Shown piece after piece: positions 20,164 through 56,782 of a stretch of DNA of 64,000 nt. Source of the stretch: a virus (taxonomy: Duplodnaviria > Heunggongvirae > Uroviricota > Caudoviricetes); the IMG/VR virus record IMGVR_UViG_2541047879_000001; one strand, given 5' to 3'. The notes beneath the pieces are model-generated. The model searched no databases and was not told the DNA's origin. It worked only from the letters and a program-made list of their open reading frames with translations. Position numbers and translations under genes: made by a program. Positions within the stretch are counted from its first letter, which is position 1. Each line of letters starts with the position of its first letter.

Positions 20164-20165
20164 CG

Positions 20166-23221: not shown

Positions 23222-23285
23222 TATCGTGTCTCCGTAACAACAGGCGGCATGGCAACGCCGCCCGGATAAAACTAAAGGTATCGAT

Positions 23286-23696
23286 ATGAAAATAGATTAC
23301 GATGAAGTATTAAGTATTCTCACAACTTTTCAGGATGCTGAAACACCTTTCCTTACACTACAGGATCTGGGCATGGCTGAGGCAGAAGGAGAGGAAAAGG
23401 ATAAAAAAGTTTTTCATCTTATGCTTCTCGCTGATAATGGCTCAATTGTTAATGGTGATATGCAGTCAGAAACACCCAAATATATTGGTTTCTTTTTCCA
23501 TTCTCTGGGCGTTGGTTTCAGAAACACGCCCATTATGCTTACCCAGCAGGGGCATGATTTAGCTAACGCCCTGAGAAAAAAACCAATCCTTGAAAGAATC
23601 AAAAAGGAGTTTACAGACGCACCATTTGATCTAATTAAAGAAGTTACCAAATCAATGTTAACCAGGTTCGTCAAAGAACGTATTGGGATTGACTGA
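23286..23696 (+). CDS. Hypothetical protein, opposite-strand insert in the Mu-like early region
   Basis: 136-aa ORF with RBS (aaagg 8 nt upstream), AT-rich codon usage, only plus-strand gene inside the minus-strand early operon. Confidence 0.45.
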   Translation: MKIDYDEVLSILTTFQDAETPFLTLQDLGMAEAEGEEKDKKVFHLMLLADNGSIVNGDMQSETPKYIGFFFHSLGVGFRNTPIMLTQQGHDLANALRKKPILERIKKEFTDAPFDLIKEVTKSMLTRFVKERIGID

Positions 23697-23966
23697 ACAA
23701 CTTAATTCAGCCAGTAATCGCAGGGCGGCGACAGCCGCCTGCTTGTCACTTCTTTTAGCTATTTCCGCAAGAGTATGCACAATCCATAACGGACTTAACG
23801 CCACGGCTGAATCCAGAATCATGTCATCCATAATAATTTCTGGCATATCCCGCTTGTCACATTCTTTATCCATAAAAGAAACGAATTTCTCTGCATCTTC
23901 CGGTTTCATGCCTCCGGCGATAAGGATTTTGCGATATTCATAAGACGATCTTAATTCAATACTCAT
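23658..23966 (-). CDS. Hypothetical protein
   Basis: 102-aa ORF, 3' end overlaps the convergent plus-strand ORF by 39 nt. Confidence 0.4.
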   Translation of the reverse strand: MSIELRSSYEYRKILIAGGMKPEDAEKFVSFMDKECDKRDMPEIIMDDMILDSAVALSPLWIVHTLAEIAKRSDKQAAVAALRLLAELSCSVNPNTFFDEPG

Positions 23967-23981
23967 TATTCACCTGCCTGC

Positions 23982-24374
23982 TTAATCTGTTTCCAGTGCT
24001 TTGCTACGGGCTATAGCCTCACATTCAAAAAATACCGACTCCGGCACGCGCTCTTTTAATTCACGAACAAGGAAATCATTAACGCGTTCATGACGTCTTA
24101 TATTTCTTTCCTTTTCCTCCTGGCGCAATACAGCAAGGCGGTATTCAACAGCCCGGCGTTGTTTCTGAAAGACAGCCAGTGCTTTTCTGGCAGCATTACG
24201 CCATGCATCATCGCCACATGGTGCGTATTCAAGCTGAAATTTAATCTCTTCAATAGTTTCTTTGATTTTTGCCAGCAAGCTAAGACAGTCGCTTATTGTC
24301 TCCAGCTTTTCATTATCAATATAACTTCTCACGCATTCACCTCCCGTAATTCCGGTAAAGCCGAAATATGACAC
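23982..24374 (-). CDS. Hypothetical coiled-coil protein (start uncertain)
   Basis: 130-aa track ORF; real start probably downstream of 24374 to avoid overlap with the upstream gene. Confidence 0.35.
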   Translation of the reverse strand: MSYFGFTGITGGECVRSYIDNEKLETISDCLSLLAKIKETIEEIKFQLEYAPCGDDAWRNAARKALAVFQKQRRAVEYRLAVLRQEEKERNIRRHERVNDFLVRELKERVPESVFFECEAIARSKALETD

Positions 24375-24658
24375 CAGTGCGTCACCTGTCCGTCTTCATC
24401 TTCAAGGCAGGCTCCGGTTTCTTCATCAACAAAAAAGCCTTCATACCCCATATGGCCGATGCGCAGCTCCTGACGGTGACCATACTGAACAATCAGCACG
24501 ACAGCCTCCATATCAGGTGGGAAAGCATCATTCAGTGAATGCCAGGGATAACCGCGTAAATCCCCGAAATAAACACCGGTCAGCGTTCCGCCACAGAGCG
24601 GCATTCCGGCGGCACACACAAGAGGTTCATCTGATTCAACAAATAAGGTCGTTATCAT
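24329..24658 (-). CDS. Hypothetical protein
   Basis: 109-aa ORF, translationally coupled to upstream gene. Confidence 0.4.
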   Translation of the reverse strand: MITTLFVESDEPLVCAAGMPLCGGTLTGVYFGDLRGYPWHSLNDAFPPDMEAVVLIVQYGHRQELRIGHMGYEGFFVDEETGACLEDEDGQVTHWCHISALPELREVNA

Positions 24659-25206
24659 GGCGTTAACTCCCGTAATACAGCGTCCTCGGCAGTCCGGCGA
24701 CGGTAATAAACTGCGTGAGCAGAATGTTCAGATATTCCAAACTTTTCGCCAATTTCCCGGAATGACAGACGGCGTGGGTAATCGGAATCACGCAGCGCAC
24801 GTATAAGACGTACATCATCATCAGATATGCGCGTGCCGGGGCGTAACTCTCCGCACTTTGTTAATCCAGCACCAATCATTCCTGCCCGACATCTGACAGA
24901 ATCTTTATTACGTCCGAGATATTCTCCCATTTGCTGGCAGGTCATTGTTCTGGCATTTTTTCGAATAAACTTATCTTCATCAGGTGTAAATCTTGGGTGT
25001 TTATATTTCAGTAACTCCGGGTATGAACTGCGCAATACACCAGTCCGGTTATATACAGCCCAGACAGTTCTTTTTATTCTGGCAGCAATATCCTTAACCG
25101 GGGTGGATGAATAAAGCGCAATCAGTAGCGCATCTTCTTCAGGTGTCCACGCGCGGACATGAGCGGGTGTACGACCTTTTCGCCCCATGTGTTGTAAAAT
25201 CATCAT
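24655..25206 (-). CDS. Hypothetical protein with three HTH-like repeats
   Basis: Three repeats of a W/F-TP-(E/D)ED...(I/V)...G motif. Confidence 0.45.
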   Translation of the reverse strand: MMILQHMGRKGRTPAHVRAWTPEEDALLIALYSSTPVKDIAARIKRTVWAVYNRTGVLRSSYPELLKYKHPRFTPDEDKFIRKNARTMTCQQMGEYLGRNKDSVRCRAGMIGAGLTKCGELRPGTRISDDDVRLIRALRDSDYPRRLSFREIGEKFGISEHSAHAVYYRRRTAEDAVLRELTP

Positions 25207-25209
25207 ACA

Positions 25210-25725
25210 TCACCCCCTGACTCGCTTTTCGGCAGCATAAAACTCATCAGACAGAATTTCGGTCATTTTCCGTTTTGCGGAATCATCTTCGCACTGAAGA
25301 TAAATCACATTGTCAACGCAGAACCAGTTCACGGGACCATACAATATTGCTGAGAAGTCAATACCCAGCCAGAACAACAGGGCATCGGTTCTGGCATACG
25401 TGACGGGCGAATATTCACGCCACAGACTGTTCAGTTCATCAGAGGCAACACGCAGGGCTTTAGGGATACGTGATGTGCGCGGTGTGCAGCTCCAGCCATT
25501 CGACGCAGTCGGTTTTCGCCATAAGTCGCGATGAAAAGGATATTTGTCCTCCGTAAAACGCAGTCCCTTAAAACAAAAACCACTGATACTGAATTCAAAT
25601 ACCGACCGGCACGCAACATTCAGCACGGCCTCAAGGCGTTTCGCCTCATCTTTTACCGTCTGGCAGTCCTGCTGGTATTTTTGCCACGCAGCCAGCGCGG
25701 AAGGGTTTGATGTTTTAAAGAACAT
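25210..25725 (-). CDS. Hypothetical Mu-like early protein
   Basis: 171-aa ORF in semi-essential early region. Confidence 0.45.
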   Translation of the reverse strand: MFFKTSNPSALAAWQKYQQDCQTVKDEAKRLEAVLNVACRSVFEFSISGFCFKGLRFTEDKYPFHRDLWRKPTASNGWSCTPRTSRIPKALRVASDELNSLWREYSPVTYARTDALLFWLGIDFSAILYGPVNWFCVDNVIYLQCEDDSAKRKMTEILSDEFYAAEKRVRG

Positions 25726-26258
25726 TACGCCACCTCCGCAGATATCCCGGCAGGCGCTGCTGTCCGGTCAACAATCAGGTAGCGCAGAACACGCGCGGTG
25801 ATATTCCAGCCGCTTAAACCGCAGATGATGACACCCAGGCGAATGTCGATATACGCCATCACAAACTGGGGCACGCCTTCTTTCATGGCCTGCTCATCAA
25901 CTTCAGCCACCACATAAACGGTTTCACAGGTCAGAACGCCCTGAGCAAATTCCCACGCCATCGACGGAATATCATGCCCCTCAATCCATGGCAGGGATTT
26001 TCTGAAGCTGCACCACTGAACATCATCAGCCGCAGATTCCTGTCTGCATTTGCGACGAATCGGCTGCACCGGGCGGGGACGCGGAATATCATAAAAACCG
26101 TTACATTCCGTCAGCACCCCGGCATCAACCGCATCACGCAGAAAATAAACCATGGAGGATGGCGGCATATTCATTTTTTCAGCCAGTACGCCGCAGGTCA
26201 GACGCCCGTAAATACTCAGCCAGTTTTTAACCCCTTCAAGCACTTTTGCATCAATCAT
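25725..26258 (-). CDS. Hypothetical Mu-like early protein
   Basis: 177-aa ORF, start overlaps upstream stop. Confidence 0.45.
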   Translation of the reverse strand: MIDAKVLEGVKNWLSIYGRLTCGVLAEKMNMPPSSMVYFLRDAVDAGVLTECNGFYDIPRPRPVQPIRRKCRQESAADDVQWCSFRKSLPWIEGHDIPSMAWEFAQGVLTCETVYVVAEVDEQAMKEGVPQFVMAYIDIRLGVIICGLSGWNITARVLRYLIVDRTAAPAGISAEVA

Positions 26259-26261
26259 GAA

Positions 26262-26804
26262 TTATTCCTCCGTCAGCGCCACATATTCAGAATGTTTAAT
26301 TTCCTGGCATTCTTCAGGAATACATCCGTTTATTTCCCTGCCATAAGCGCCCACTTTAAACACCACGCACAGGGCATCACGGGAGAACGAAGGGGTCCAC
26401 CAGGAGTCCGTGTTAAACATGGAGGGGATTCTCATTACCCCCAGCTTTTCACAGAGCCAGACAAGGAAATCAGGACGCTTTCTTAACTCGCGTTCAGCGG
26501 CTTCAATCATTGCGGCAATCGCCGGTCCTTCAGGGCATGACTCATCAGGTCTGGCTATAAAGCACTGTCCGCCACCGATAAAAGCCACATCATCGCGCTT
26601 ACGCCAGCCCGCAGGCAGAGCACCGGCAAAATAAAACTCACTGATTCTGTCCATGGCGAACGGCTTTAAGCGCAATCCGGCAGCGCCTGTATTTTTCAGT
26701 AATGTCCGAAGAATACTGTTGCGTAGCGGTAAAACAGCCTGTTGATATTTGGTGAAATATTTATTTGTCTGCACACGGTCTAATTTGAAATAAAAATATG
26801 CCAT
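26262..26804 (-). CDS. Hypothetical Mu-like early protein
   Basis: 180-aa ORF downstream of gam. Confidence 0.45.
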   Translation of the reverse strand: MAYFYFKLDRVQTNKYFTKYQQAVLPLRNSILRTLLKNTGAAGLRLKPFAMDRISEFYFAGALPAGWRKRDDVAFIGGGQCFIARPDESCPEGPAIAAMIEAAERELRKRPDFLVWLCEKLGVMRIPSMFNTDSWWTPSFSRDALCVVFKVGAYGREINGCIPEECQEIKHSEYVALTEE

Positions 26805-26901
26805 ATTTCCGATTCCTTATTTTCAGCTTTCAGGCGCAAGCAGTCCCCTGACGCGAGCGCCATAATTAAAATGAAGTGATATTTAAATAATTAATGCGGT
26901 G

Positions 26902-27432
26902 TTATTTATTCAGTCCGGCATCCTGTTCAAAAGGCTCGACATAAAAACTTTCAGCGCCTTTATTCACCTTTATACCGGCAATGCCTTTCACCGCATCCGG
27001 CTCCGCCAGGACGGCTTCCTTGTTCACTTCCTCTTTCGTGCGGATGAATCGCTCAAGCCCCATACGGCGCAGCGTGTCAATCACACCTTCCACATCACGG
27101 CTGACGCTGCATGATGGCGTTCCCAGCCGCCATGACACCGTTCCGGTGGTCAGATTGGCAGTTTTGGTTTTGCCGCCGTTCGTCAGCTCATCACGGTTGG
27201 TTTTACACCAGTCCTGAATCCCTTTAAAAAGCACTTTGATTTGCTTTTTAAGATTTTCAATCTGCGGCGTATAACGGGCGGTGATTTCTGCCACTTCATC
27301 ATTCATCGCCGTTTCCAGGCGCAGCGCCTCTCGCTGAATATCGCCCAGGGTGCGGATATCGCGGCTGACTTCTTCGCGGGTCTGCGGTGCGGCCTCGGCT
27401 ACAGCCTTTAATTTTGTAACGCGTTTTGCCAT
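26902..27432 (-). CDS. gam: Host-nuclease inhibitor Gam (Mu Gam/Ku-like DNA end-binding protein)
   Basis: 176-aa protein with the Mu Gam sequence signature (MAKRVTKLK...), correct position in early operon. Confidence 0.85.
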   Translation of the reverse strand: MAKRVTKLKAVAEAAPQTREEVSRDIRTLGDIQREALRLETAMNDEVAEITARYTPQIENLKKQIKVLFKGIQDWCKTNRDELTNGGKTKTANLTTGTVSWRLGTPSCSVSRDVEGVIDTLRRMGLERFIRTKEEVNKEAVLAEPDAVKGIAGIKVNKGAESFYVEPFEQDAGLNK

Positions 27433-27443
27433 TTTGTTTTTCC

Positions 27444-27764
27444 TTATTGCAATGTATCTGGTGCGTTCTGCAAGGAGCGGCGCTCAATGCTGCTTTTCAC
27501 CCCCAGAGCCTGCATGGAACCCTGAAGTTCATCTGTCAGAAACTGAATAATTGTGGGGCTGTGATATTTAAGAATTTGCGCATAAACATCACATGGGCCT
27601 GTCGGTCTGTTCTCCGTATCACGTTCGATTTTTACAGTGGCAGTAACCCCCTCCGTGATTTCCTGACTATCATTACCGGCTGGCTTTACTTCATGCATTA
27701 CGTGGTTAAATTCAAAAATAACGCGTACTTTGCTCATGGAATTACCCCTGCTGATTAAATTCAT
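27444..27764 (-). CDS. Hypothetical protein, paralogue A
   Basis: N-terminus MSKVRVIFEFNHVMHEV parallels neighbour MSKVVHIIFEYKEHVIHK. Confidence 0.45.
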   Translation of the reverse strand: MNLISRGNSMSKVRVIFEFNHVMHEVKPAGNDSQEITEGVTATVKIERDTENRPTGPCDVYAQILKYHSPTIIQFLTDELQGSMQALGVKSSIERRSLQNAPDTLQ

Positions 27765-28014
27765 TACCGTTAATAACCCCGGAAGCCATGCCCCTGTCTT
27801 TCATGAATGCACTGGCTTTCATTGCCACAAGCTCTGCGAAGTTTCTGCTTTCCGCGAGCATAACCCCCCCAAAAATCATGGCGGGTCCATCACCTTTCTG
27901 CTTTATCCCGGTTGAACGTATGTCCAGACTTACCCCCATGCGCACTGTTCCATCAGCGTTTTTATGGATAACGTGCTCCTTATATTCGAAAATAATGTGT
28001 ACGACTTTACTCAT
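27742..28014 (-). CDS. Hypothetical protein, paralogue B
   Basis: 90-aa ORF, tandem paralogue of 27444-27764. Confidence 0.45.
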   Translation of the reverse strand: MSKVVHIIFEYKEHVIHKNADGTVRMGVSLDIRSTGIKQKGDGPAMIFGGVMLAESRNFAELVAMKASAFMKDRGMASGVINGNEFNQQG

Positions 28015-28292
28015 CCTCTGGTCCTCGTTCTGTTTGGATAACTGACCCGGCGTCTGACCTCACGGCAGAACCGAATCATGGCATTAAAGGCTTCTTCCTC
28101 CGTCACCGCTTCCGGTATCCCCGGAACCAGTAACTGCTCCTGTTCATCACGTCCATGACGCGCCATAACCTCAATCACATGCCGTACCGTGGCAGGCTTT
28201 CCGGCAACTATCGGCAATGCACCTTCCGGCAGGACGTAACCAAACTCAATAAGACCACTCGACCACGCCCATGCAATGAGATTTTTTTTCAC
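28011..28292 (-). CDS. Hypothetical protein
   Basis: 93-aa ORF, translationally coupled. Confidence 0.4.
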   Translation of the reverse strand: MKKNLIAWAWSSGLIEFGYVLPEGALPIVAGKPATVRHVIEVMARHGRDEQEQLLVPGIPEAVTEEEAFNAMIRFCREVRRRVSYPNRTRTRG

Positions 28293-28293
28293 C

Positions 28294-28560
28294 TCACACC
28301 TCCCAGTAAACCGTGCAGCCGCTGATGCGGGTGGCCTTCACACGGCGGCGCAGGCCGTTGGTCTGTATGGTGATTTCAATTTCACCGGTTCCCTGCACGT
28401 TGCCTACCGGCGGCGTGGTTTTCAGTGCAAAACGTTGCGGATAGCGCTTACTGCGTTCCAGTACCGCACCGGCAAGTTCGGTCAGACGGCGCGCGCTGTT
28501 CAGGGAGTCGAATAAATTCATTTTGTTACCGCAGGATTGCATATTCATATAACACCTCAT
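28294..28560 (-). CDS. Hypothetical protein
   Basis: 88-aa ORF. Confidence 0.35.
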   Translation of the reverse strand: MRCYMNMQSCGNKMNLFDSLNSARRLTELAGAVLERSKRYPQRFALKTTPPVGNVQGTGEIEITIQTNGLRRRVKATRISGCTVYWEV

Positions 28561-28788
28561 TTAGCTGACTTGTTTCGCACCAACAGAACGGCATATTCCG
28601 CTGTAAACTTCTGTCGCACCTTCGCGATCAAGTCCGGCAGATATCACCATTCGTGTGCGGTCATTAAATTCAAAAAGTAAATCGCCACATTCTTTATTTT
28701 CGGCCAGTGAAATCACCTTCACGTTATCGAAATTAACCAGGTAAAAGCGTCCGTAAATATCAGGAATATTAAATACCGCCATAATCAC
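28561..28788 (-). CDS. Hypothetical small protein in the kil position downstream of B
   Basis: 75-aa ORF immediately after the B-like gene; positional analogy only. Confidence 0.35.
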   Translation of the reverse strand: MIMAVFNIPDIYGRFYLVNFDNVKVISLAENKECGDLLFEFNDRTRMVISAGLDREGATEVYSGICRSVGAKQVS

Positions 28789-29726
28789 ACCTGTGAGAGT
28801 AATTCAGGGTTGGTATAAACCTCTTTAAAGGCCGCATTAATATGTTTTTCTGTCAGCGCCGCGCCTTCACCGCTGGCGGTGAGCCACGCCTGGTTAAGCG
28901 TATGTGTCAGAACGCGTAACGCTCCCGGCTTTTCAGCGATAGCCTGCATGACGGCCAGCTCGGCCTCACCACTGATCCCCCACGCCATGGCAATGGCCAG
29001 CACATCCGCCTTTTTGGCCTTGCGAAGTTGTTTTGTACGGGCAAGACGGCTGAACAGGCGCGATAAATCATCAAAGGCGCGGCGTCCACCTTTAAACAAT
29101 CCGCGCGGGTTACCAATAAGCACCATCCCGATCCCCGTGGCGTCCTGAATTGCCCGGAGTTGCTCCAGACCGTCAATACCAAGATGATCCGCCTCATCCA
29201 CAATCACCAGTCCACGCGTTCCCATCAGGCGACGGCGGATGGCGCGGGATAATGCCCCTTTGTTCGCGCGGGTGTAATCAATCCCCAGCGCATCGGCCAG
29301 CTCCAGCAGACACTCCGTGACGCTGGAGTGCGCGGGTGACAGGGTGATCATCCAGGTGTTTGGTTGCTCCTGGCAGTAATTACGGGCAGTGGCCGTTTTA
29401 CCCACACCCGGTACGCCCACAATAACGTTAATACAGCCCATCAGGCGAACCGCCTGAAACAGTGCGCGCAGCTCCTGGACTGTCTGAGTTTCCACAAACT
29501 GCGGCGGTTCCGGCAGTGCGCTTTGTTTATTCCAGTTCTCATACCAGGAGCGCAGGGAAGCAGCCACAGCAGCGTTATCGCCTTTATATTTTCCCTTACG
29601 GAAAGCCGATAATGTGCCGTCGGAAATTCCCGCCTCTCTGGCGATGGCATACTGCGTCAGTACGCCGCCATCAATAAGTTCATCAATGGTCTTGATTACA
29701 TCGTTAATATCGGTCATATTATTCAC
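28785..29726 (-). CDS. B: DNA transposition protein B (MuB-like AAA+ ATPase)
   Basis: Walker A GVPGVGKT, Walker B LVIVDEADHL, N-terminal HTH; directly downstream of transposase. Confidence 0.85.
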   Translation of the reverse strand: MNNMTDINDVIKTIDELIDGGVLTQYAIAREAGISDGTLSAFRKGKYKGDNAAVAASLRSWYENWNKQSALPEPPQFVETQTVQELRALFQAVRLMGCINVIVGVPGVGKTATARNYCQEQPNTWMITLSPAHSSVTECLLELADALGIDYTRANKGALSRAIRRRLMGTRGLVIVDEADHLGIDGLEQLRAIQDATGIGMVLIGNPRGLFKGGRRAFDDLSRLFSRLARTKQLRKAKKADVLAIAMAWGISGEAELAVMQAIAEKPGALRVLTHTLNQAWLTASGEGAALTEKHINAAFKEVYTNPELLSQV

Positions 29727-29799
29727 CTCGCTTGAGACAGCATTCTCCGAGACTGAAACCTCAAATAACCTGAGTCACCCCTCGGGTTATTTTTTTATT

Positions 29800-31890
29800 T
29801 CAGGCCAGCGGATCACTTTCTTTTAATTTCGCTTCGAGCAACTGCAATCCCCGCTGGAAATTACGCTCGTATTCTTCATCAGGTTCATCGTCAGCGACCG
29901 GTTGCTGAACGGTCACCGTATTACCCACAGGGCGGTATATGTTTTCCAGCCAGGGCTCCTGCGGCTTGTGCTCCAGCACGTTGACAACCTCATCCTCGGC
30001 ATCACGGATTTTTTCCTCTGCGCGTTTACGCATGCCTTTAAGGCGCTGCTGCTGTTTGTAGTATTCCGCGCTGACAGGGAAGGCTTCGCGTTTATTGCCG
30101 TCCCATACCGCCTCGCAAATCACGCTGCCATCCGGGCGGCGCACGGTAATTCGTTCGGCATCATGAATGTCATAGCTGATAAGTACCTTACGGCCATGCT
30201 CGTCACGCAGCTCGGGCGCGTAGTAAATATTATTCAGCCAGCGTATTTCACAGCGTCTTACAGGGCGCTCCACCATCGGCCGGAACATATCCCGCAGTTC
30301 AACATCGGACAGCCATTCAATTTCCGTGTCCTCTTCCGCCAGGCGTTTTTTTCTGAACTCCGCCGGGCTGTAATGTTTACCGTTCGGCTTCATGGGTAAT
30401 TCATCGTGCGGCCGGTTGTTGTACCACTCAACACCGTCACGAATGGCATCAATCAGTTCAGACCAGGACGGTAAATCACGCATCGCTGACTGCTGCCGGG
30501 CGTTCAGCCGTTTGCCCTGTTGCAGGGCACTGAATGCCGAGCGTAAATCGCGGTTGGTTTTACGTAACGTCTCGCGATCTGCTCCTTTCCCGAAATAGGT
30601 GCGGTATTTACGGGCTATGCGCATCGGTAATGTGCGGTTAAGCCGTTCGATAATGCCCCGTCCCTGCGGATTACCGGCAATCCCTGTCGGGTGATTAATC
30701 CCCAGTCGTGGCAGTATCCCCACAATCTCCTTATCCAGGACGTCGGCGGTTTCCCCGGAGCCATTATCCGAGTAATACAGAAACGGTTTGCCATGATGGC
30801 GAATACCGTGCTGTATGGCACCGGCTACGGCGAAAACATTTTCAGCCAGGTCAAGGCTCCAGCCCACCACAAAGCGCGTGCCACCGTCGATAACAAAGGT
30901 CACTTCCGGTGCGAATGGCCGCCCGTGAACCGGGTGCGCGCATTTCAGCTTCATGCCGTGACCGTCACCAATCCAGACATAATTCACCGGCATTCTGGAC
31001 CAGTCGCGGCGCGTGAATCCCTCAAGCTGACGGTATTCACTGCCAGTTACCCGGCCTTTTTGTTTCACCACTTCCGGCAGTTTCTTCATTGCGCGGCGAA
31101 TGGTGTCATAAGAGGGCATGATATCGAGCATATAAGGCTCATCAGCGTGCCGGTGCTGCCATTCAGCAACAAAATCCTCGTAAGCCTCGGTCATTGGTCG
31201 GCCGTTTGACTGGCGATACTGCGCCAGAAATTCGGGCAGCCAGTTAATATCTTCGGCTTTTATTTCCTGGCGTTTACCCGGTGCCAGTAAAAGCAGGCGT
31301 TCAGCGGCGTTCTGTGCCTTGTTAAAGGCCGCAATCCAGCGTTTCAGCGTGATTTCACTCAACGCGCGGCTGTTTCCCTTTTTGGCGTTCGCCGTCTCAA
31401 CCATTGCCACAATGCGCTCGTCCAGTTGTGATCGTGCCAGGCTGTTAACGAGGAACCGGATAGCCTTAGCGCAACTAAAGCCGGGTTGTTGCGCGATTTT
31501 CAGCACCTCGCTGACGATCGCTATTCGTGCCTCTGCCACTTTACGTTGGTTTTCAGTCAGGGCATTGAGGCGTTCGACCATCAGTTGGGGTGATCCGCGA
31601 TATGCCTCCACCGCATCAACCACGGCAGGTGAGCGTCTGGCCTTTGTCACCACCGGAGCCGGTGATTCATCGGCTTTTTGCGTCATCAGTTGCAGGGCGT
31701 AGCGTTCACGTAATGCCTGCTGCGTCACTTCAGGTAAACAGTCGATGCTGTATTCAGTTGCTTTAGAGCCTGAGCGACGACGGGAACAACAGCTTTTCCC
31801 TTGTACGTAACGTTGTAATGCCTGGCGAATACCTTTTGTTGTAGCAGGCATTCCGGGCGCGCCAATCAGTTCTTTTGCAATGACATACAT
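29800..31890 (-). CDS. A: DDE transposase A (MuA-like)
   Basis: 696-aa protein with clear similarity to MuA, downstream of ner. Confidence 0.9.
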   Translation of the reverse strand: MYVIAKELIGAPGMPATTKGIRQALQRYVQGKSCCSRRRSGSKATEYSIDCLPEVTQQALRERYALQLMTQKADESPAPVVTKARRSPAVVDAVEAYRGSPQLMVERLNALTENQRKVAEARIAIVSEVLKIAQQPGFSCAKAIRFLVNSLARSQLDERIVAMVETANAKKGNSRALSEITLKRWIAAFNKAQNAAERLLLLAPGKRQEIKAEDINWLPEFLAQYRQSNGRPMTEAYEDFVAEWQHRHADEPYMLDIMPSYDTIRRAMKKLPEVVKQKGRVTGSEYRQLEGFTRRDWSRMPVNYVWIGDGHGMKLKCAHPVHGRPFAPEVTFVIDGGTRFVVGWSLDLAENVFAVAGAIQHGIRHHGKPFLYYSDNGSGETADVLDKEIVGILPRLGINHPTGIAGNPQGRGIIERLNRTLPMRIARKYRTYFGKGADRETLRKTNRDLRSAFSALQQGKRLNARQQSAMRDLPSWSELIDAIRDGVEWYNNRPHDELPMKPNGKHYSPAEFRKKRLAEEDTEIEWLSDVELRDMFRPMVERPVRRCEIRWLNNIYYAPELRDEHGRKVLISYDIHDAERITVRRPDGSVICEAVWDGNKREAFPVSAEYYKQQQRLKGMRKRAEEKIRDAEDEVVNVLEHKPQEPWLENIYRPVGNTVTVQQPVADDEPDEEYERNFQRGLQLLEAKLKESDPLA

Positions 31891-31891
31891 A

Positions 31892-32140
31892 TCATGACGC
31901 CTTTCTCATATAGCTCTTAACCTGGTATCGACTGGGCCAGATTTCTTCAGGTGATACCCCAAGAGCATCAGCAATTATTTGCTGATACGGTCGGCAAGGA
32001 GTACGTAATACGCTTTTCAGCGAATCCCTGCTGTAACCAGCCTTTAAAGATAAAGAGCGCAGTGATAAGCCAGCCATGTGTAAGCGCGCCTTGATGATTT
32101 CAGGCGGCCAATCGTGATCTGAAACTTCTCTTCTACTCAT
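31892..32140 (-). CDS. ner: Ner-like DNA-binding regulator (Ner/Nlp family)
   Basis: 82-aa HTH protein (LSLRSLSLKAGYSRDSLKSVL) first in the early operon. Confidence 0.8.
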   Translation of the reverse strand: MSRREVSDHDWPPEIIKARLHMAGLSLRSLSLKAGYSRDSLKSVLRTPCRPYQQIIADALGVSPEEIWPSRYQVKSYMRKAS

Positions 32141-32331
32141 ACTTCCTCTATTCTAAAAAGTTACCCGCGCGGATATTCGTGCGGATATCTGTACGGGTAA
32201 ATAATGCATCACCAAAAATACCAAATCAAGGTATTTTTGGTATTTTTGGCTAATTTTTGCTTTTATCCTTATTTTTCAATTGGATAAATAGAAAGAAACC
32301 TTTCCTTAGAAAAGCACCAAGAGGTATCTTT
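32141..32331. promoter_or_regulatory. Divergent early/repressor promoter-operator region
   Basis: Intergenic between divergent ner and repressor genes; inverted repeat ccaaaaatacc / ggtatttttgg and tandem ggtatttttgg copies around 32212-32250. Confidence 0.5.
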
Positions 32332-32862
32332 ATGTCGCAGGGAAAAGAACCTGTTATTGAACGTATTGGAATGCTTACAAAGCGCTACCCTTCAAGAAGT
32401 GCAGCTGCCAGAGCGTGGGGAATCAATATCAACACATTAAACAGCTATTTCAAGGGAGGACAAACACAACCAGCCCCCAGAGAAAGTATCCTTATACGAA
32501 TTTCTGAAAGTGAAGGCGTTAGTCTTGAGTGGCTTAAAGAGGGCAAGGGTGAATTACCAAACGATATTGGTATTTATGGTAATTTTGGTTGTTCTGGTGA
32601 TAAGGGAGATCAGCTTACACAGATGCTTTCATTCCTTACGAAAGACGAACGAGAACAGTTAACCAATCTCCTTGCTCGCAAAGGTGTAGAGACGGTTCTG
32701 ACACTGCTGAATAAAGAAAACCAGGATTTATTACAACTAGAAGGCAGGAAGCGCCTGGCTGCGTTGATGATTGTAGATATGCCAGACGATTGCGTCAGAG
32801 AGATTTTGGAAAAAACCGAGACAAGTAGGCAATCAAATCCGGTAGAATCTAAAGCGGGTTAG
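32332..32862 (+). CDS. Putative prophage repressor (Mu c-type position)
   Basis: HTH SRSAAARAWGININTLNSYF; divergent from ner-A-B at the prophage end; start at internal ATG with RBS aagagg. Confidence 0.6.
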   Translation: MSQGKEPVIERIGMLTKRYPSRSAAARAWGININTLNSYFKGGQTQPAPRESILIRISESEGVSLEWLKEGKGELPNDIGIYGNFGCSGDKGDQLTQMLSFLTKDEREQLTNLLARKGVETVLTLLNKENQDLLQLEGRKRLAALMIVDMPDDCVREILEKTETSRQSNPVESKAG

Positions 32863-32869
32863 TTTGGCG

Positions 32870-33112
32870 AGGCTGGCCCGTATGTTAGTTGCCATATAGA
32901 TTTAATGAAGTTTTAAACGCTTTAAAAAGTTGAGATCGCAGTATCAAAAGTTTTGCCGATTTTAGAATAAACGATTAATTATTGCACAATCGATATCAAA
33001 TAGACTTTAAGCGCTCATCCAGACATCACCTGTTTTATTTCAGTATCTTACAGGTGATTTCACCTCCTTTCACTAAAACCCTCGTTGGTATCAAATGATT
33101 CACCTGGTTACA
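32870..33112. repeat. Mu-like left-end terminal region with putative transposase-binding repeats
   Basis: Repeated CACCTG/TCACCT motifs (33026, 33052, 33099) and terminus ...ggttaca at 33106-33112. Confidence 0.5.
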
Positions 33113-46458: not shown

Positions 46459-46667
46459 CGAGATTAAAGACCATTAATTCATATGTGAATTGACAGTTTC
46501 ATGGCACAGGATACGGCTAGCGTGGTTGTCTGTTTTGTGCCAGGGGCGGGCCTAACTAAGTTCACACAACATTGATTATTGAAGATTAGGTCAGAAATAA
46601 ATAGGTTATTTTGATAATTTAGTTACGTTAGAATGCCGCAGTGTACAAAGTAAAAATGAGGAATAAT

Positions 46668-48029
46668 ATGACTCGGAGTGAAATAAACGTCTGGGATAAG
46701 AGACGAGGCACCAATAGTCATCGTGTGGAGGAGATTCGATCTGAAGCTCAGCACGACCTTTCTCGACTGATTCACTCGTCTGCTTTCAGACGATTGCAAT
46801 CCAAAACACAGGTTCTTGGTCTGGGTGAAAGTGATTTCTACCGCACACGACTGACTCATTCTATGGAAGTCGCACAAATCGGTTCAGGTCTTCTTGCTAA
46901 GCTGAAAATAAAATATAAAGGTAAAGAGCAAGAGCAATTTTTACCAGATAACGATCTTATGCAGGCAGTATGTCTCGCACATGATATTGGACATCCTCCA
47001 TTTGGTCACGGCGGTGAGGTAGCTCTTAACTACTGTATGCAGGATTACGGTGGTTTTGAAGGAAACGGTCAGACACTTCGCATTCTCTCGAAACTAGATA
47101 AGTATACCGTTGAACACGGACTCGATCCTACACGCAGACTTCTGCTAGGCATACTGAAATATCCGGTTAAATACTCGGATCTAGTGGTTACAAAAGACAG
47201 AATCCCGGCCACTATCGGATCGCCGAACTGGCTCTTTAAGTCATCTGATTTTAAACCTCCAAAATGCTATCTAGATTCAGAATGCGATGTTGTAGAATTT
47301 GCTCTTTCACCATTTACTGAACAGGATCGGAGGCTTTTTACTTCCGTTGAAGATGGTCAAACTAAATCCGATCATAAAAAAGCTTCTTATAAAGCTCTCG
47401 ATACAACCATCATGGATCTTGCCGATGAAATTTCGTATTCGCTGCACGATTTGGAGGATGCTATTTCTCTCGGAATGGTGACACGAGAAATGTGGATGGA
47501 GCATTTCAGTGAATATGAAACCCTATTTACTAACTGCCATGGAGAAACATTTTCCGCAACATGTGAATCTGTCGCGGATAGCCTTTTTGGTGAAAGTTAC
47601 AAGAGAAAAGAGTGCATCGGGATGCTGGTTCACCTGATGATTACAAGCGTTGAGCTTATTACAAAGAATCCAGCATTCGAATGTGGCATGCTCAAATATA
47701 ATGCGGTCCTTCCGGAAGCGGTCGAAGCACTACGGTTGAAAATTTTCAAACTGGTCAAAAATAAAGTAATTAAGCATGAAAATGTACAGCAGCTTGAATT
47801 CAAGGGACAAAAGTTGATTGTTGAGCTTTTCGGTGTGCTGGCTAACGATCCGTGTCGGTTTCTACCGGCATCAACGAGGGAAATTTACGAGCGGCAGACT
47901 AGCTTGGACGAGAAGGCTGGTATGCGAGTCATTTGCGACTATGTTTCAGGGATGACTGATGACTATGCAACAAAGCTTTATGAGAAGATCCTTATTCCAC
48001 GCAAAGGGTCTATTTTTGACCATCTCTAA
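46668..48029 (+). CDS. Dgt-family dGTPase (HD-domain dNTP triphosphohydrolase); candidate anti-phage nucleotide-depletion enzyme
   Basis: Motifs shared with E. coli Dgt: FRRLQSKTQV, RTRLTHSMEVAQIG, HDIGHPPFGHGGE, EGNGQTLRIL, DLADEISYSLHDLEDA, YVSGMTDDYA; RBS gagga before ATG 46668; AT-rich island. Confidence 0.85.
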   Translation: MTRSEINVWDKRRGTNSHRVEEIRSEAQHDLSRLIHSSAFRRLQSKTQVLGLGESDFYRTRLTHSMEVAQIGSGLLAKLKIKYKGKEQEQFLPDNDLMQAVCLAHDIGHPPFGHGGEVALNYCMQDYGGFEGNGQTLRILSKLDKYTVEHGLDPTRRLLLGILKYPVKYSDLVVTKDRIPATIGSPNWLFKSSDFKPPKCYLDSECDVVEFALSPFTEQDRRLFTSVEDGQTKSDHKKASYKALDTTIMDLADEISYSLHDLEDAISLGMVTREMWMEHFSEYETLFTNCHGETFSATCESVADSLFGESYKRKECIGMLVHLMITSVELITKNPAFECGMLKYNAVLPEAVEALRLKIFKLVKNKVIKHENVQQLEFKGQKLIVELFGVLANDPCRFLPASTREIYERQTSLDEKAGMRVICDYVSGMTDDYATKLYEKILIPRKGSIFDHL

Positions 48030-48090
48030 TGCGGCAAGAATGATGCTCTGAGTTCAATTGACCTATAAACATTAACCAAGGCATCTACCA

Positions 48091-48110
48091 GGGGGATATC
48101 AAATCCCCCC
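48091..48110 (+). terminator. Hairpin downstream of dGTPase gene
   Basis: gggggat-atcaaa-atccccc stem-loop followed by a T-containing tract. Confidence 0.4.
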
Positions 48111-48439
48111 ATTCTGAATTTGTTCGTGCAGAATCGGTGAACGTTCTCATCTGAGCGTTAAACGCCAATAATCGTTGATCTACATTGATCATTAATACAC
48201 CTTAATACCATTAGCGTCTTACTCCGTTATGAGAACAAACGCGAACTGACCTGCCCCCAGTATTAGTGACCTTCAGCTACGGTAACTTGTCCGCTTCGTG
48301 CCAGAAGCGGACATCCATAGAGAAATAAGCGATCAGTTCTTAAATTTGTTGTGATTTTTTGATTTTTTTGTATTCGCAAAGGGATTTGTGTTGGTTGTAT
48401 AATTACCTAATATTCATACAGTTGAATGGGAGATGTGGG

Positions 48440-49333
48440 ATGAAGTTCTCGTACAGACATGGTTTTGATCCTGAGTATAATAAAAAGCCGATACGGGAAG
48501 ATGCTCCAGAGTGGCTTCGCTCTTTATTTTTTGTAACTGTCCTCGATAATTTTTTGTACATTGATGGTGATAGCCGCATTACGAATGATGAGAACAAGCC
48601 GTTGGGTATTAAGGCTTTGATCGAGCGACTTTGCGCAGAGAATGGTCAAGAAACAGATCATGAGGATTTCGATTCATGGTACTGCTATGATGCTTTGAAA
48701 GCGCGTTTGCAACATATGCGTTGGTTTCAATTTTATGATGCTGTTGAGATTATCGGAGATCTATTAAGAAAAAGAGATGTAGAAAGAGGCCATACTTGGG
48801 GTAAGAAGGCATTAGAAGACATTACTTTTACATCATATCGTCAGAAATTGAACGAGTTATTCGCATCTCGAAATATTGACTGGAAAATGAATTCTGCTGG
48901 TAGGTTAGAAACACCACTACCAAATGAATTAGAACAAAAAATCGATGAAACTAACAACTTATTGCAAGACCAGTTTGAACCTGCAAGGAGGCACTATGTG
49001 AAAGCCCGGGCTTTTGCATTAGGTGCGCATAAGGATCCAGAAAATTCCATAAAAGAATCAATAAGTGCAATAGAAAGCATGTGTCGGACTTATTATCCTT
49101 CAGCCTCAACCTTGGGCGATGTATTAAAACTGATGAGAAAAGAAAACACTATCTCACCTATGCTTTTAACGGTGATAGAGAAATTTTACGCTTATACAAA
49201 TGCAGAGCCAGCAGTAAGACATGGTAGCAACAAGGTTTCTTCTGTCTTGGAATACGATGCTGAATTCGTGTTGCATATATCAGCAGCATTTATTAGAACA
49301 ATAATACAAAGAAAAGCTGTTTTGGATAACTAA
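48440..49333 (+). CDS. Uncharacterised protein (297 aa), no family recognised
   Basis: ATG with RBS gggag; -10-like tataat about 40 nt upstream; AT-rich; convergent with MBL-fold gene. Confidence 0.5.
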   Translation: MKFSYRHGFDPEYNKKPIREDAPEWLRSLFFVTVLDNFLYIDGDSRITNDENKPLGIKALIERLCAENGQETDHEDFDSWYCYDALKARLQHMRWFQFYDAVEIIGDLLRKRDVERGHTWGKKALEDITFTSYRQKLNELFASRNIDWKMNSAGRLETPLPNELEQKIDETNNLLQDQFEPARRHYVKARAFALGAHKDPENSIKESISAIESMCRTYYPSASTLGDVLKLMRKENTISPMLLTVIEKFYAYTNAEPAVRHGSNKVSSVLEYDAEFVLHISAAFIRTIIQRKAVLDN

Positions 49334-49419
49334 GTCAGACTTACAGCCAACTGACTGTCTCTTATTATTCAAAACATAATAATGTTAGGTCCGCTTATCG
49401 CACATCAGGGACAACCATA

Positions 49420-49450
49420 CTCAAATCTCCCACATTGCAGGAGATTTGAG
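49420..49450. terminator. Perfect 11-bp inverted repeat between convergent genes
   Basis: ctcaaatctcc-cacattgca-ggagatttgag between stop of 48440-49333 and stop of 49574-50800. Confidence 0.4.
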
Positions 49451-49573
49451 TGTGAACACGTCACCGTGGAACAAAGACTGTATCATCGGTCAAAAAAGAC
49501 CTGGTTATCTAGCAAAAACTTTTAACATACCAACAAACTTAATTTATTTAAATGCTATTAATACAACTAATGT

Positions 49574-50800
49574 TTAAAATATATATTTTATATCAACCCA
49601 ATTTTTAGCATTATTGTCAACTAAAGTAACGCTATGTCCATGACTTGAATTTATAGCATCGATTACTGATTGTGATGGGTGTCCATGTGAATGACCATCC
49701 GACTGAGCTATAAACAAAACATTATCAAAATCCGCAATTATTTTTTGATTGAAATTTAATTCCGAACCATGATGAGGTAATGTCATCACCCTTACCGTTT
49801 TAATCACTTTTGAATAGAATTCAGCCCATTTATTATAATACAATGATGTATTAAGCTTTGAGTCACCTGTTAATAAAACAGATCTAATTCCTTTATCTCT
49901 ATCAAAGAGAAAATGTCGCTCAACCCGACTATTTCTAAAACTAAACCACTCACGAGAAGGCTCATTAACAATTTTCATCTCAGCTTCTTGATTATTAATA
50001 ATCAAGAGATTGATTGATATTACATTATGATCGCCAGCAAGTTTTAAATAACACTCGCGTAATTTCTTTCTTTCCCCCGTGCTAGTTAATATTTTAAGCA
50101 TTTTTTTCTTACTTAACTCAGTAAAACCATTTTCTATTAACTGCTGACTGAAAATTTCAATTTTCTTACGTGAACGGGGCGGTATCCAAGAAATAAATGA
50201 CATTAGTGTATCAGTTTTGTTTTCCCCAATCCTTTTAACCAACCAACGGTTACATTCAACATCTCCTTTGGAGTCAGATATTTTCATTGGTAAGCTTACA
50301 GCGCTATCCTTAATGTTTTCACTATTAAATATAGGAGGGTCAAAATTATCATCAATATCACAGGGGTAAAGCAAAGATATATCTGCCTCAGGCAACCTTG
50401 ATTTTATCCATTTGACAGGATCAATGAGAAATTCCATAAAAAGACCTGACGTAGAATTAGAGCATAGCTCCGATGCAATTAAGTAATAGCTATCATGGAT
50501 ATCTAGGTATGGTAATACAACCTTGCGTATTTTGTTATCTACAAGCTGACATAAATGGTCAAATCCATTTATATGGTCTGAATCCAAATGAGAGATGTAT
50601 ACCACATCAATATATTTCTCATCAATATTAAAGAGAGATTTAGCCACATCCATCTCCCTACGCAACGCATTTAATTGGTCACTTCCGCAGTCATACACAT
50701 AACTGTAAAGCAAACTACCATCCCTTCCCCTCAGTCCGCCTAAACTAAATCCACCCTGGCCAACGGGAAACAATCTTTTATGAAATACTTCTCCGCTCAT
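49574..50800 (-). CDS. Metallo-beta-lactamase-fold hydrolase, ComEC-type MBL signature (putative nuclease)
   Basis: HxHxDH-like motif YISHLDSDHINGFDH, later LPHHGS and DGHSHGHPS metal-ligand motifs; RBS aaggat before ATG; AT-rich. Confidence 0.7.
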   Translation of the reverse strand: MSGEVFHKRLFPVGQGGFSLGGLRGRDGSLLYSYVYDCGSDQLNALRREMDVAKSLFNIDEKYIDVVYISHLDSDHINGFDHLCQLVDNKIRKVVLPYLDIHDSYYLIASELCSNSTSGLFMEFLIDPVKWIKSRLPEADISLLYPCDIDDNFDPPIFNSENIKDSAVSLPMKISDSKGDVECNRWLVKRIGENKTDTLMSFISWIPPRSRKKIEIFSQQLIENGFTELSKKKMLKILTSTGERKKLRECYLKLAGDHNVISINLLIINNQEAEMKIVNEPSREWFSFRNSRVERHFLFDRDKGIRSVLLTGDSKLNTSLYYNKWAEFYSKVIKTVRVMTLPHHGSELNFNQKIIADFDNVLFIAQSDGHSHGHPSQSVIDAINSSHGHSVTLVDNNAKNWVDIKYIF

Positions 50801-51514
50801 ATATCCTTCTTACACCCTAACGTGATCATAAAATTGTCTTAAAGTTAAGTTTAAAGCTAAAAAGTCACAGCTCATTCCAACTCGTGAGCAATAGGAATGT
50901 ATATTCAATCAGTTAGAGGATCAACCCGATTTTCTCTAATGAGATTTCGCAACGCAGTACGAACAGCAGCTACTTCTGCCATCTCATTAACAACCACACT
51001 GGACTACAATCCCCTAAGTTCTACAGACTGTAACCATATCCTCTTCACAGAAATAATCTGATTAATGCTGAAGGTCATCTTTCTCGACGCGAATGTATGA
51101 CATAACAACCTCAGTTAATTATCTTTCGATAGAAAAATACCTTCACAAAAGGTTTAAGCAACCCATCACAAGACAACACGCTAAGCTTGCCTTGTAAGCG
51201 TCCTGCTTAACCGAACAGTTCGCTTTCAGAGGATCTCCGGAGAACAGCTCCGATGCCTTATAAGGCCAATGCTCGCTCCTCGCTCACTGCGGACCTAAGG
51301 TTTGGTCAGCTTGTTCGCACTCTGCCAAAAGCGGGAGTTACTCCCATTCGGTGTTAATCAATGTAGAGCAGATCAATCAACGACAAAGAAAATGAGAGGC
51401 ATATCACTACTCATATGAAAATTATTGTAGTAAAGTGAGCCGTAAGTTCATCATTTATAAATCATATAGCATATATGTTATATCAATTTTAATTTAAATG
51501 GCAGAATAATTACC

Positions 51515-52219
51515 ATGGAAAAAATTAAAACTCCTTGTCCATATTGTAAAGGTGAAAAAAATTGCCACATAATAGGCCATAAAAAAAGAGAATGGAGTGA
51601 GGATGATGGGGGCAACTATTTTTGGGCTGAAAGTGAATACAAATTATTAGAGTGTATGGGGTGCGACGGAATATTTACATATATTAAATCCCGTCACAGT
51701 GAAGATTACGACATTGAAAGAGATGAGTCAGGCTATGATTGTATGGTATATAACTATCATATATCAACATATCCCACTCAAGAGCAAGAAGAGATTAGAC
51801 CAACTTGGTTTGGTGAGACATTAAACAAAGATCGTCAGCTGTATGTAATAATGAACGAAATGTACATCGCATTTCAAAATAAATCATTCATTTTAGCGGC
51901 GATTGGACTTAGAACTATTTTTGACAGAACAGTTGAGGTTCTAAATATTCATCCAGGATATACATTAGGCCAGAAGGTTGACATTCTTAAAGAGGAAGGT
52001 TTTATTGGGGAAACAGAAAGGAGCCAACTTAAAATTGTAACCGAAGCTGGCAACTCAGCTGCACACAGGACATGGGCACCGAACGAAACTGAATTTAAAT
52101 CGCTTTTGGTAATTATAGAAAATTTTGTAATGCGAACAATACTAAAAAATGAGGATATATTTAAGATTACAGAAAAATTACCTGCGAAATATCCAAGACC
52201 TCCCAAAAAGCAAGAATAA
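51515..52219 (+). CDS. Zinc-ribbon plus DUF4145-like (HEPN-like?) protein; candidate abortive-infection effector
   Basis: N-terminal CPYC...(36 aa)...CMGC four-Cys ribbon; C-terminal AAIGLRTIFDRTVEVL...AGNSAAHRTW region recalled as DUF4145-like; weak RBS. Confidence 0.5.
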   Translation: MEKIKTPCPYCKGEKNCHIIGHKKREWSEDDGGNYFWAESEYKLLECMGCDGIFTYIKSRHSEDYDIERDESGYDCMVYNYHISTYPTQEQEEIRPTWFGETLNKDRQLYVIMNEMYIAFQNKSFILAAIGLRTIFDRTVEVLNIHPGYTLGQKVDILKEEGFIGETERSQLKIVTEAGNSAAHRTWAPNETEFKSLLVIIENFVMRTILKNEDIFKITEKLPAKYPRPPKKQE

Positions 52220-52657
52220 TGTACGTAAGTGTAAATAGAGCTAAGAGATTATATATTGACTCTGGTTATCTCTATTAGCACATGCTTTTTGTAATGCCTT
52301 AACTGATTATTTAAACTCCTGTCAGCTTTTCGCTCAAAGCGGACTAAAGTGTTGGCTTGTGACTGACTTAGCGCATTTAAGGAAGTGGTGGTGGTGACGG
52401 GGTGTTGTGTCCCATTTCCACAGAATAAATCAGAGAAACTATAGCGGCTGTAATGGCAATCTATGGTCTTGCTATTGCTCTTATGGATCACCTTTCTGAT
52501 TGATTTCATATTGGCGAGGTAACGGGAGTTAAGTAGAATAGCTGCGGGTGCTTGAGGCTGTCTGCCTCGGGCATGAACACCAAAGGCAGATAGAGAAAAG
52601 CCCCAGTTAACATTACGCGTCCGGCAAGACGCTTAACATTAATCTGAGGCCACATCT

Positions 52658-52906
52658 ATGCTTTGCATACGTAGATTAGCCTCTTACCGACCAAAAGGTC
52701 AAGGAGAAGCAGGCTATGAAGCAGCAAAAGGCGATGTTAATCACCCTGATCGTCATCTGTTTAACCGTTATAGTGACGGTACTGGTAACGAGGAAAGACC
52801 TCTGCGAGGTACGAATCCGAACCGACCAGACGGAGGTCGCTGTCTTCACAGCTTACGAACTTGGGGAGTAAGAGGACCAGCGGGGAGAAATCCCCGCAAC
52901 CTCTGA
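52658..52906 (+). CDS. Possible mok-like overlapping reading frame of the hok locus
   Basis: ORF starting 58 nt upstream of hok and overlapping it in another frame, as in hok/sok/mok loci; positional inference. Confidence 0.3.
   Translation: MLCIRRLASYRPKGQGEAGYEAAKGDVNHPDRHLFNRYSDGTGNEERPLRGTNPNRPDGGRCLHSLRTWGVRGPAGRNPRNL
52716..52871 (+). CDS. hok: Hok-family membrane toxin (HokD/RelF-like), type I toxin
   Basis: 51-aa ORF MKQQKAMLITLIVICLTVIVTVLVTRKDLCEVRIRTDQTEVAVFTAYELGE found by reading (below track cutoff). Confidence 0.8.
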   Translation: MKQQKAMLITLIVICLTVIVTVLVTRKDLCEVRIRTDQTEVAVFTAYELGE

Positions 52907-55807: not shown

Positions 55808-56236
55808 ATGGGTTTTCGTAGCGCATCAATTCTTACGTTGATTATTAGTGGGATTATTATCGGGTGCACTGATGCTGTATCGACAAATTATCATGACCGT
55901 ACATCATATTACTCCGATAAAGCAATAGAGACACAGTATGTGAGTTCATCTGAACGTACTTCTGATGTTAGTGAGGATATCCGTCTGTATGCCCATCAAA
56001 TCAAGAGCGCCATCGAAAAACAGTTCGGGGATGCGAGTAAGTATTCAGGAAAAGAGTGTACACTGAGAATGCATATGGCCCCGAATGGCCTTCTACTGGA
56101 GGTTAAAAGAGAAAGTGGAGACCTCGATTTATGTCGTGAAGCGATGAATGCGATAAAGAATGCTGATATACCTGCCCCCCCTTCGCCGGAAGTATATAAA
56201 GTATTTCAAAATGGGGTGCTGGATTTTAAACCCTGA
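55808..56236 (+). CDS. Lipoprotein with TolA C-terminal (domain III)-like fold
   Basis: Lipobox IIGC; C-terminal YAHQIKSAIEKQFGDASKYSGKECTLRMHMAPNGLLLEVKRESGDLDLCREAMNAIKNADIPAPPSPEVYKVFQNGVLDFKP aligns with E. coli TolA domain III. Confidence 0.7.
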   Translation: MGFRSASILTLIISGIIIGCTDAVSTNYHDRTSYYSDKAIETQYVSSSERTSDVSEDIRLYAHQIKSAIEKQFGDASKYSGKECTLRMHMAPNGLLLEVKRESGDLDLCREAMNAIKNADIPAPPSPEVYKVFQNGVLDFKP

Positions 56237-56386: not shown

Positions 56387-56782
56387 GTGGGATTAAAGAA
56401 AATCGTTATGTTGACTTTTTGGGTCGGTTTTGTTGCGGGATGCACACCTTTACACCCTTCAGATTGCCACAAAACTACTGCTACAGGTAGTTGCAGTTCA
56501 GGACGCTGGGATGATCAGGATGAATGGGGGGCGCAAGCGCGGGGAATCAGAGCTGCAATTAATGCCAAACTTGATGAGCCGCATAACTGGAAAGGGAAAA
56601 AATGCAGGTTGCATATGGAATTCTCTCAGGATGGCACGGCGTTAAAAATATCTACCAGTAACGGTGATAAAGCCTATTGCGAAGCGATAAAGTCCGCAGC
56701 TCATAAAGCCAAATTTCCGGCCTTCAACAATCCGGAAGTCTACAGAGATTTTCAGAAATCTGGCTTTGACATGCGAGGTTAG
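56387..56782 (+). CDS. Second TolA-domain-III-like lipoprotein (diverged paralogue)
   Basis: Lipobox VAGC; same GK.C.L.M....G..L......GD...C.A...A..KA.FP....PEVY..FQ pattern. Confidence 0.6.
   Translation: MGLKKIVMLTFWVGFVAGCTPLHPSDCHKTTATGSCSSGRWDDQDEWGAQARGIRAAINAKLDEPHNWKGKKCRLHMEFSQDGTALKISTSNGDKAYCEAIKSAAHKAKFPAFNNPEVYRDFQKSGFDMRG

Follow-up and report, generated by a model that had tools for sequence, protein, structure and literature searches.

A gene of the anti-phage dGTPase family in a Rac-like prophage travels as a 1.7-kb cassette among Enterobacterales and probably serves defence

In summary, the analysis described here leads us to conclude that a gene lying in a Rac-like prophage of Escherichia coli is, judged by its sequence, a member of the described family of anti-phage dGTPases; that this gene, carried as a prophage moron, very probably codes for a dGTP triphosphohydrolase of the Sp-dGTPase family that stands alone and serves defence; and that it travels as a single-gene cassette of about 1.7 kb between prophages, satellite-like islands and restriction-modification (R-M) islands of Enterobacterales. 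The gene was studied within a 64,000-nucleotide stretch of DNA from a Caudoviricetes record (IMG/VR record IMGVR_UViG_2541047879_000001), and by the window we mean that whole stretch. The family assignment was on record before: in RefSeq/PGAP the identical protein, WP_021554374.1, bears the name "anti-phage deoxyguanosine triphosphatase". The original prediction had preferred a defensive to a metabolic role for this gene, and that preference is supported by the match to the anti-phage family model and the failure to reach the housekeeping one, by PADLOC, by 55% identity to a proven defender, by an accessory distribution and by neighbours from defence systems.

The open reading frame that had been proposed, with a ribosome-binding site of its own, is real. 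In the ORF listing the longest frame (46641..48029, plus strand) begins at a GTG and would give 462 aa; an in-frame ATG at 46668 (MTRSEINVW...) gives a product of 453 aa. This ATG is the start used by RefSeq and agrees with the N-terminus of Sp-dGTPase (PDB 9P8W), and a GAGGA ribosome-binding site, read from the sequence at 46658..46662, precedes it with a spacer of 5 nt. The 453-aa protein contains the Pfam domains HD (31.6 bits) and HD_assoc (68.9 bits). Its family E-values in NCBIfam and PADLOC profile searches run from 1e-144 to 1e-168, and chance can be excluded as the source of the gene itself. The features of the window that are discussed below are collected in Table 1.

Table 1. Features of the window, with positions counted from its first letter
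Feature	Position	Strand	Remarks
Mu-like transposable prophage	1..33111		GC 0.55-0.60
MuB-like ATPase of the Mu-like prophage	28785..29726	-	
MuA-like transposase of the Mu-like prophage	29800..31890	-	
Low-GC accessory block in the lygF-hokD slot	46459..52500		dGTPase and three defence-like genes; from GC, PADLOC and Pfam
Cassette leader	46537..46667	+	131 nt, with GAGGA ribosome-binding site; conserved with the R-M island copy
Anti-phage dGTPase coding sequence	46668..48029	+	453 aa plus stop; HD-domain dGTP triphosphohydrolase by family models and alignment
Cassette 3' flank	48030..48247	+	conserved, to the limit of homology; contains the hairpin 48091..48109
AbiJ_NTD4 / PDC-S32 protein	48440..49333	+	297 aa, directly 3' of the dGTPase; Pfam 34 bits (at cut-off), PADLOC PDC-S32 116 bits
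MBL-fold protein	49574..50800	-	408 aa, GC 0.34; weak C-terminal PADLOC matches to LmuA, RT-associated MBL, Avs1a and PDC-M48B
DUF4145 protein	51515..52219	+	234 aa; HEPN-like GNxxAH motif, zinc-ribbon-like N-terminus (CxxC...CxxC)
hok/sok type I toxin-antitoxin	52546..52871		hokD ORF 52716..52871; Rfam sok 105 bits (52546..52721); right edge of the accessory block
Two tandem TolA C-terminal-domain proteins	55808..56236 and 56387..56782	+	142 and 131 aa; 83 and 55 bits; just 5' of the lysis genes

The family models place the protein with the defenders. On the NCBIfam model for anti-phage deoxyguanosine triphosphatase (NF041026) it scores 560.1 bits against a cut-off of 400, and on the model for housekeeping Dgt (NF003429 / PRK04926) it scores 149.3 bits, below the cut-off of 405. 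As controls for the discrimination between the two models, Sp-dGTPase, which is a proven defender, and E. coli Dgt were scored on both: the former gave 575 bits on NF041026 and 156 bits on NF003429, and the latter 195 and 895 bits. The PADLOC dGTPase model PDLC02374 also matches the protein, at 478 bits. The metal ligands H64, H105, D106 and D253 and the catalytic pair H114/E117 are kept in all nine of the sequences that we aligned; they correspond to H69, H117, D118, D268 and H126/E129 of E. coli Dgt, and the metal-binding and catalytic residues are identical in Sp-dGTPase. A neighbour-joining tree of the nine sequences groups the window protein with Sp-dGTPase and with E. coli enzymes like that of strain G177, and sets Dgt far outside. 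Placement within housekeeping Dgt had been named beforehand as the result that would count against defence; in both this tree and the Dgt model, the protein falls outside that group.

The motif blocks that had been recognized as common to this protein and E. coli Dgt do exist, six in number (RRLQxKTQV, RTRLTHSMEV, HDIGxPPFGHxGE, FEGNxQ, ADxISYxxxDLEDA and DYxSGMTDxYA), but overall identity to Dgt (b0160) is only 26% (139/540, with 27% gaps). Such blocks, together with the common fold and catalytic residues, are what might be cited for a Dgt paralogue, a second metabolic or housekeeping dGTPase that trims dGTP for replication fidelity and has merely been captured by a prophage. It has also been suggested that homologues with less than about 45% identity to Sp-dGTPase are possibly housekeeping enzymes (10.1101/2021.04.26.441389). 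The window protein, however, lies above that line, and its low identity to Dgt and its score on the Dgt equivalog model both argue against a paralogue. So does distribution: dgt is present in 5,425 of 5,426 complete E. coli genomes, all but one, whereas the prophage gene occurs in 0.3% of them, and its copies always lie on mobile or defence islands. On these comparisons a housekeeping paralogue is exceedingly improbable and is effectively refuted already.

The relationship to Sp-dGTPase is much closer. The best match among solved structures, at 509 bits, is PDB 9P8W, the dGTPase of Shewanella putrefaciens (PMC12265719). BLASTP aligns residues 10-453 of the query with residues 5-462 of Sp-dGTPase, over 98% of the length, and 254 of 459 positions (55%) are identical. 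Sp-dGTPase, from S. putrefaciens CN-32, depletes dGTP by converting it to deoxyguanosine, and the substitution D101A abolishes its defence (10.1101/2021.04.26.441389). In the same study, Tal et al. delimited a defence-associated subset by at least 45% identity to Sp-dGTPase and at least 90% overlap; homologues at or above that identity mostly adjoin known defence genes (58/110), whereas more distant ones do not (10.1101/2021.04.26.441389). With its 55% identity over 98% of the length, the window protein clears this line.

The gene had been assigned to a prophage island, and this setting was confirmed: the host element is a Rac-like lambdoid prophage at ttcA, and the dGTPase gene stands between its replication genes and hokD with the Q-like late region. 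The gene order reads intR, xisR, recET, kilR, sieB, cI/cro, ydaT, replication genes (ydaV-like), DUF1627, DUF977/lygF and then the dGTPase; the order continues with the AbiJ_NTD4 protein, the MBL-fold protein, the DUF4145 protein, hokD, DUF1367, the Q-like antiterminator, the lysis genes and the terminase. Over 2.4 kb around the dGTPase gene the window is 100% identical to several complete E. coli genomes. The slot between lygF and hokD holds other genes in other phages, namely ead-type small genes and an IS1 in Rac-SA53 and one unrelated 444-aa gene in Tritos. In the window it is filled by an accessory block with a GC content of 0.38, in which the dGTPase gene itself has 0.43; the prophage backbone has about 0.50-0.53.

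The neighbours of the dGTPase within this block differ in how well they are kept. RefSeq names the AbiJ_NTD4 protein hypothetical, and its gene is intact in all eight of the prophage carriers inspected. For the DUF4145 gene RefSeq has only a shorter, 158-aa version that starts at 51742, and PADLOC gave no match to the 234-aa protein. Some carriers have lost the MBL and DUF4145 genes or have them interrupted by IS elements, and the dGTPase gene is intact there; carriers with a disrupted or lost MBL gene are those at our loci L017 and L018.

Other parts of the window deserve a brief description. At its left end a Mu-like prophage has inserted inside dbpA, and homology to the uninterrupted E. coli dbpA/ttcA region resumes at 33112. 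The idea that the window is colinear with strains S40 and RM9513 was rejected upstream of 33112, where the Mu-like prophage stands instead; both strains carry the same dGTPase prophage and lack the Mu-like prophage at this site. Further to the right, the segment with the two TolA-domain proteins sets the window apart from the RM9513 prophage, which lacks it but is otherwise similar. These proteins may be decoys against TolA-dependent phages or colicins.

The gene is not confined to this prophage. The copy in E. coli 1303 and C311 is homologous to the window over exactly 46537..48247, from 131 nt 5' to 218 nt 3' of the coding sequence, at 97.1% identity, and in both strains this cassette adjoins a type I R-M operon with an embedded DarTG. 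The protein encoded there differs from the window protein at 11 residues, none of them catalytic. The same 1.7-kb cassette thus moves between lambdoid prophage and R-M defence islands. A search for flanking repeats and att-like sites at the cassette edges returned only short repeats, at chance level. The cluster of proteins at 90% identity extends to Klebsiella, Salmonella, Enterobacter, Citrobacter, Raoultella, Proteus and Providencia (Enterobacteriaceae and Morganellaceae), and its members were seen in four settings: beside a type I R-M system and GmrSD at an smpB island; at the end of the tail module of a siphophage (prophage); in a P4-like island; and in an island with AbiJ_NTD4, Peptidase_U49 and WYL genes.

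Within E. coli the gene is rare. At 95% nucleotide identity or above it was found in 17 of 5,426 complete genomes, and relatives at about 66% nucleotide identity occur in 74 further genomes of that set, 64 of 92 places being plasmid-borne. The plasmids that carry these relatives are about 70-115 kb long; the single one inspected is a P1-like phage-plasmid, in which the relative lies next to ssb. A close relative was present in one of 50,697 deposited phage genomes, that of an induced P1-like phage, and IMG/VR holds one identical copy. The exact protein is encoded on more than 1,000 contigs.

What drives expression of the gene in the prophage bears on two further explanations. The gene follows directly on the replication genes and is read in the same sense as the early-right operon, and its expression might come only after prophage induction. 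A sigma-70 scan found no promoter in 46459..46667, upstream of the gene. By eye, a good -10-like TAGAAT can be seen upstream without a usable -35, and it is not kept in the R-M island, whose copy reads TAGAAC; the perfect TTGACA at 46491 lies beyond the cassette edge and is not followed by a -10. In a search of Rfam at E <= 1 for regulatory RNAs near the dGTPase, such as an AvcI-like antitoxin RNA, none was found, the only hit being sok at 52546..52721.

The downstream hairpin to which the original prediction had pointed is indeed present at 48091..48109 (GGGGGAT-atcaa-ATCCCCC), 62 nt past the stop codon, with a GC-rich stem of 7 bp. It is weak, however, and adds nothing to the case: it lacks a U tract, and the 104-nt region that contains it is predicted to fold no more stably than its shuffles (z -1.37). 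We therefore rejected it as a terminator, on these two grounds and on the silence of the terminator scan, which did not call it. A second hairpin, of 10 bp at about 48290..48316, is beyond the cassette and, like the first, without a U tract.

The first of these explanations holds that the protein is a nucleotide-pool enzyme that serves the phage, made from the early-right operon in lytic growth, and not a host defence expressed in the lysogen. Such an enzyme might, for example, skew dNTP pools, slow the replication of the host or a competitor, or exclude co-infecting phages only during induction. The orientation of the gene with the replication genes, directly 3' of them, would fit, as would the failure of the sigma-70 scan to find a promoter of its own and the occurrence of relatives next to ssb on P1-like phage-plasmids and in one induced P1-like phage. 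But the cassette, with its 131-nt leader, also stands outside prophages beside R-M, DarTG and GmrSD, where a role of this kind would be senseless; a close relative was found in only one of the deposited phage genomes; and a phage that depletes dGTP would impair the synthesis of its own DNA. We regard a phage-serving enzyme as very unlikely.

The second explanation is that the gene is a silent passenger, with an intact frame that in this prophage is either silent or without activity and that is carried along by recombination. Scans and folding demonstrate neither a promoter nor a terminator, and in some carriers IS elements are eroding the neighbouring accessory genes. Against this, the reading frame is unbroken and keeps every catalytic residue, more than 1,000 contigs carry it in identical form, and it has stayed intact where its neighbours are disrupted; moreover, none of the 11 differences that separate the R-M island copy falls on a catalytic residue. 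A passenger without function is, in our judgement, a remote prospect.

The preferred reading is thus a stand-alone defensive enzyme, and homology suggests how it would work. The HD metal centre formed by H64, H105, D106 and D253, with H114 and E117, would convert dGTP to deoxyguanosine and inorganic triphosphate. The protein is probably a hexamer of antiparallel dimers, after the 55%-identical Sp-dGTPase, whose crystal shows that assembly and which in purified form is active alone in vitro (PMC12265719). From its homologues and genomic context, we infer that the dGTP pool of the lysogen would collapse when a superinfecting phage replicates, so that phage DNA synthesis stalls. Host and resident prophage would both be protected, as expected of a moron. 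For Sp-dGTPase, mutations by which T7 escapes defence map to gp5.7 and gp0.7, modifiers of the host RNA polymerase, and because of this, tampering with host transcription was proposed as what is sensed (10.1101/2021.04.26.441389).

A caveat to the defensive reading is that the dGTPase should also hinder the replication of its own prophage, and a mechanism of self-protection is not visible. Because the carrier is an inducible lambdoid prophage and the gene belongs to its early-right operon, we considered that the prophage may escape its own dGTPase at induction, by means of an encoded inhibitor or of a switch, transcriptional or allosteric, that depends on the lysogenic state. We think this unlikely; were it so, the locus would offer a natural route to an anti-dGTPase factor, or to the signal that activates stand-alone dGTPases.

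In a weaker variant of this escape reading, the dGTPase works with the adjacent AbiJ_NTD4 protein. Functional coupling to the AbiJ-like neighbour was considered and found unsupported, since the cassette stands without an AbiJ-like gene in the R-M island, and since the AbiJ_NTD4 protein of the window has essentially no sequence kinship with the one beside the Klebsiella/Salmonella copy. As to the latter, the gene that flanks the 95%-identical dGTPase in the Klebsiella/Salmonella island is a very divergent AbiJ_NTD4 gene (loci L025-L028, 6357..7271, minus strand). In addition, a 111-nt stretch 3' of the window's AbiJ-like gene (49390..49500) recurs 5' of the R-M island cassette (locus L008, 8309..8419). 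The divergent AbiJ_NTD4 flank and the recurring stretch hint at a common recombination history.

How close the tested enzymes come to this gene can be judged from the founding study. Of six dGTPases cloned by Tal et al., four were protective, those of E. coli G177, Mesorhizobium, Pseudoalteromonas and Shewanella (10.1101/2021.04.26.441389). The window protein shares 67-68% identity with the G177-like genes of E. coli chromosomes and P1-like plasmids; the chromosomal relatives are 98% identical to the protective G177 construct over its first 133 aa, the sole stretch available. The nearest tested construct is that of Enterobacter sp. ODB01, which is 92.5% identical to the window protein over the 133 aa printed. 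It starts MQAVCLAHDIG, at the equivalent of M98, and hence without H64, the first metal-binding histidine (Table S5, 10.1101/2021.04.26.441389). By elimination, it would be one of the two non-protective constructs of the six, and the N-terminal truncation would plausibly explain its absence from the four protective ones. Because the ODB01 construct is truncated and appears to be non-protective, the positive full-length tests of that study lie outside the subclade of the window protein.

This last point is the practical one: the subclade is widespread, with the exact protein on more than 1,000 contigs and the 90% cluster in both Enterobacteriaceae and Morganellaceae, and the one related construct of the founding study was truncated. 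Otherwise, the defensive reading brings little beyond correct annotation: one more temperate phage whose moron, a single gene, would provide defence by nucleotide depletion.

Finally, the gene can be compared with the known systems of this superfamily. Other anti-phage dGTPases with the HD fold are CloA/CloB of Clover (PMC12265719) and the octameric Vdg of Vibrio (PMC13519002). Identity with Clover CloA was rejected: the CloA chains 9P8S-V score only about 76-83 bits against the window protein, compared with 509 for Sp-dGTPase, and the flanking genes, DUF977 and AbiJ_NTD4, include no adjacent Pol-beta nucleotidyltransferase of the CloB type. The 402-aa chains 9VWA and 9VWC, deposited as a Dgt-like protein and presumably the Vibrio Vdg, score about 145-149 bits, and an enzyme of the octameric Vdg type was rejected on that score. 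Housekeeping Dgt (b0160; PDB 4X9E/6OIY; NCBIfam NF003429) belongs to the same superfamily of HD-domain triphosphohydrolases and has the same H...HD...D metal site and H/E pair, but it is a protein of 505 aa with extra insertions, in contrast to the 453 aa of the window protein, and its gene is a core gene at a fixed locus beside mtn, whereas the gene of the window is accessory and lies inside a prophage.

The relatives of the G177 dGTPase share family and species with the window gene and are annotated as anti-phage dGTPases; the window gene, at about 66% nucleotide identity, represents a distinct subclade. The carriers differ as well: the window copy lies in a lambdoid prophage, whereas the G177-like copies lie in an island at yjcB (loci L004/L005, 3211..9279) with genes for a 7-cyano-7-deazaguanine synthase (QueC-like), a PfkB kinase, a nitroreductase/dehydrogenase, an 8-oxoguanine DNA glycosylase and a Dam-like DNA adenine methylase. 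Its deazaguanine flavour makes this an unusual neighbourhood for an enzyme that would degrade dGTP. Sp-dGTPase is likewise among the closest known systems. It and the window gene differ in host and carrier, the window gene belonging to an E. coli Rac-like lambdoid prophage, and 45% of their residues differ; both are single genes for proteins of about 455 aa with HD and HD_assoc domains, both pass NF041026, and both are associated with defence islands.
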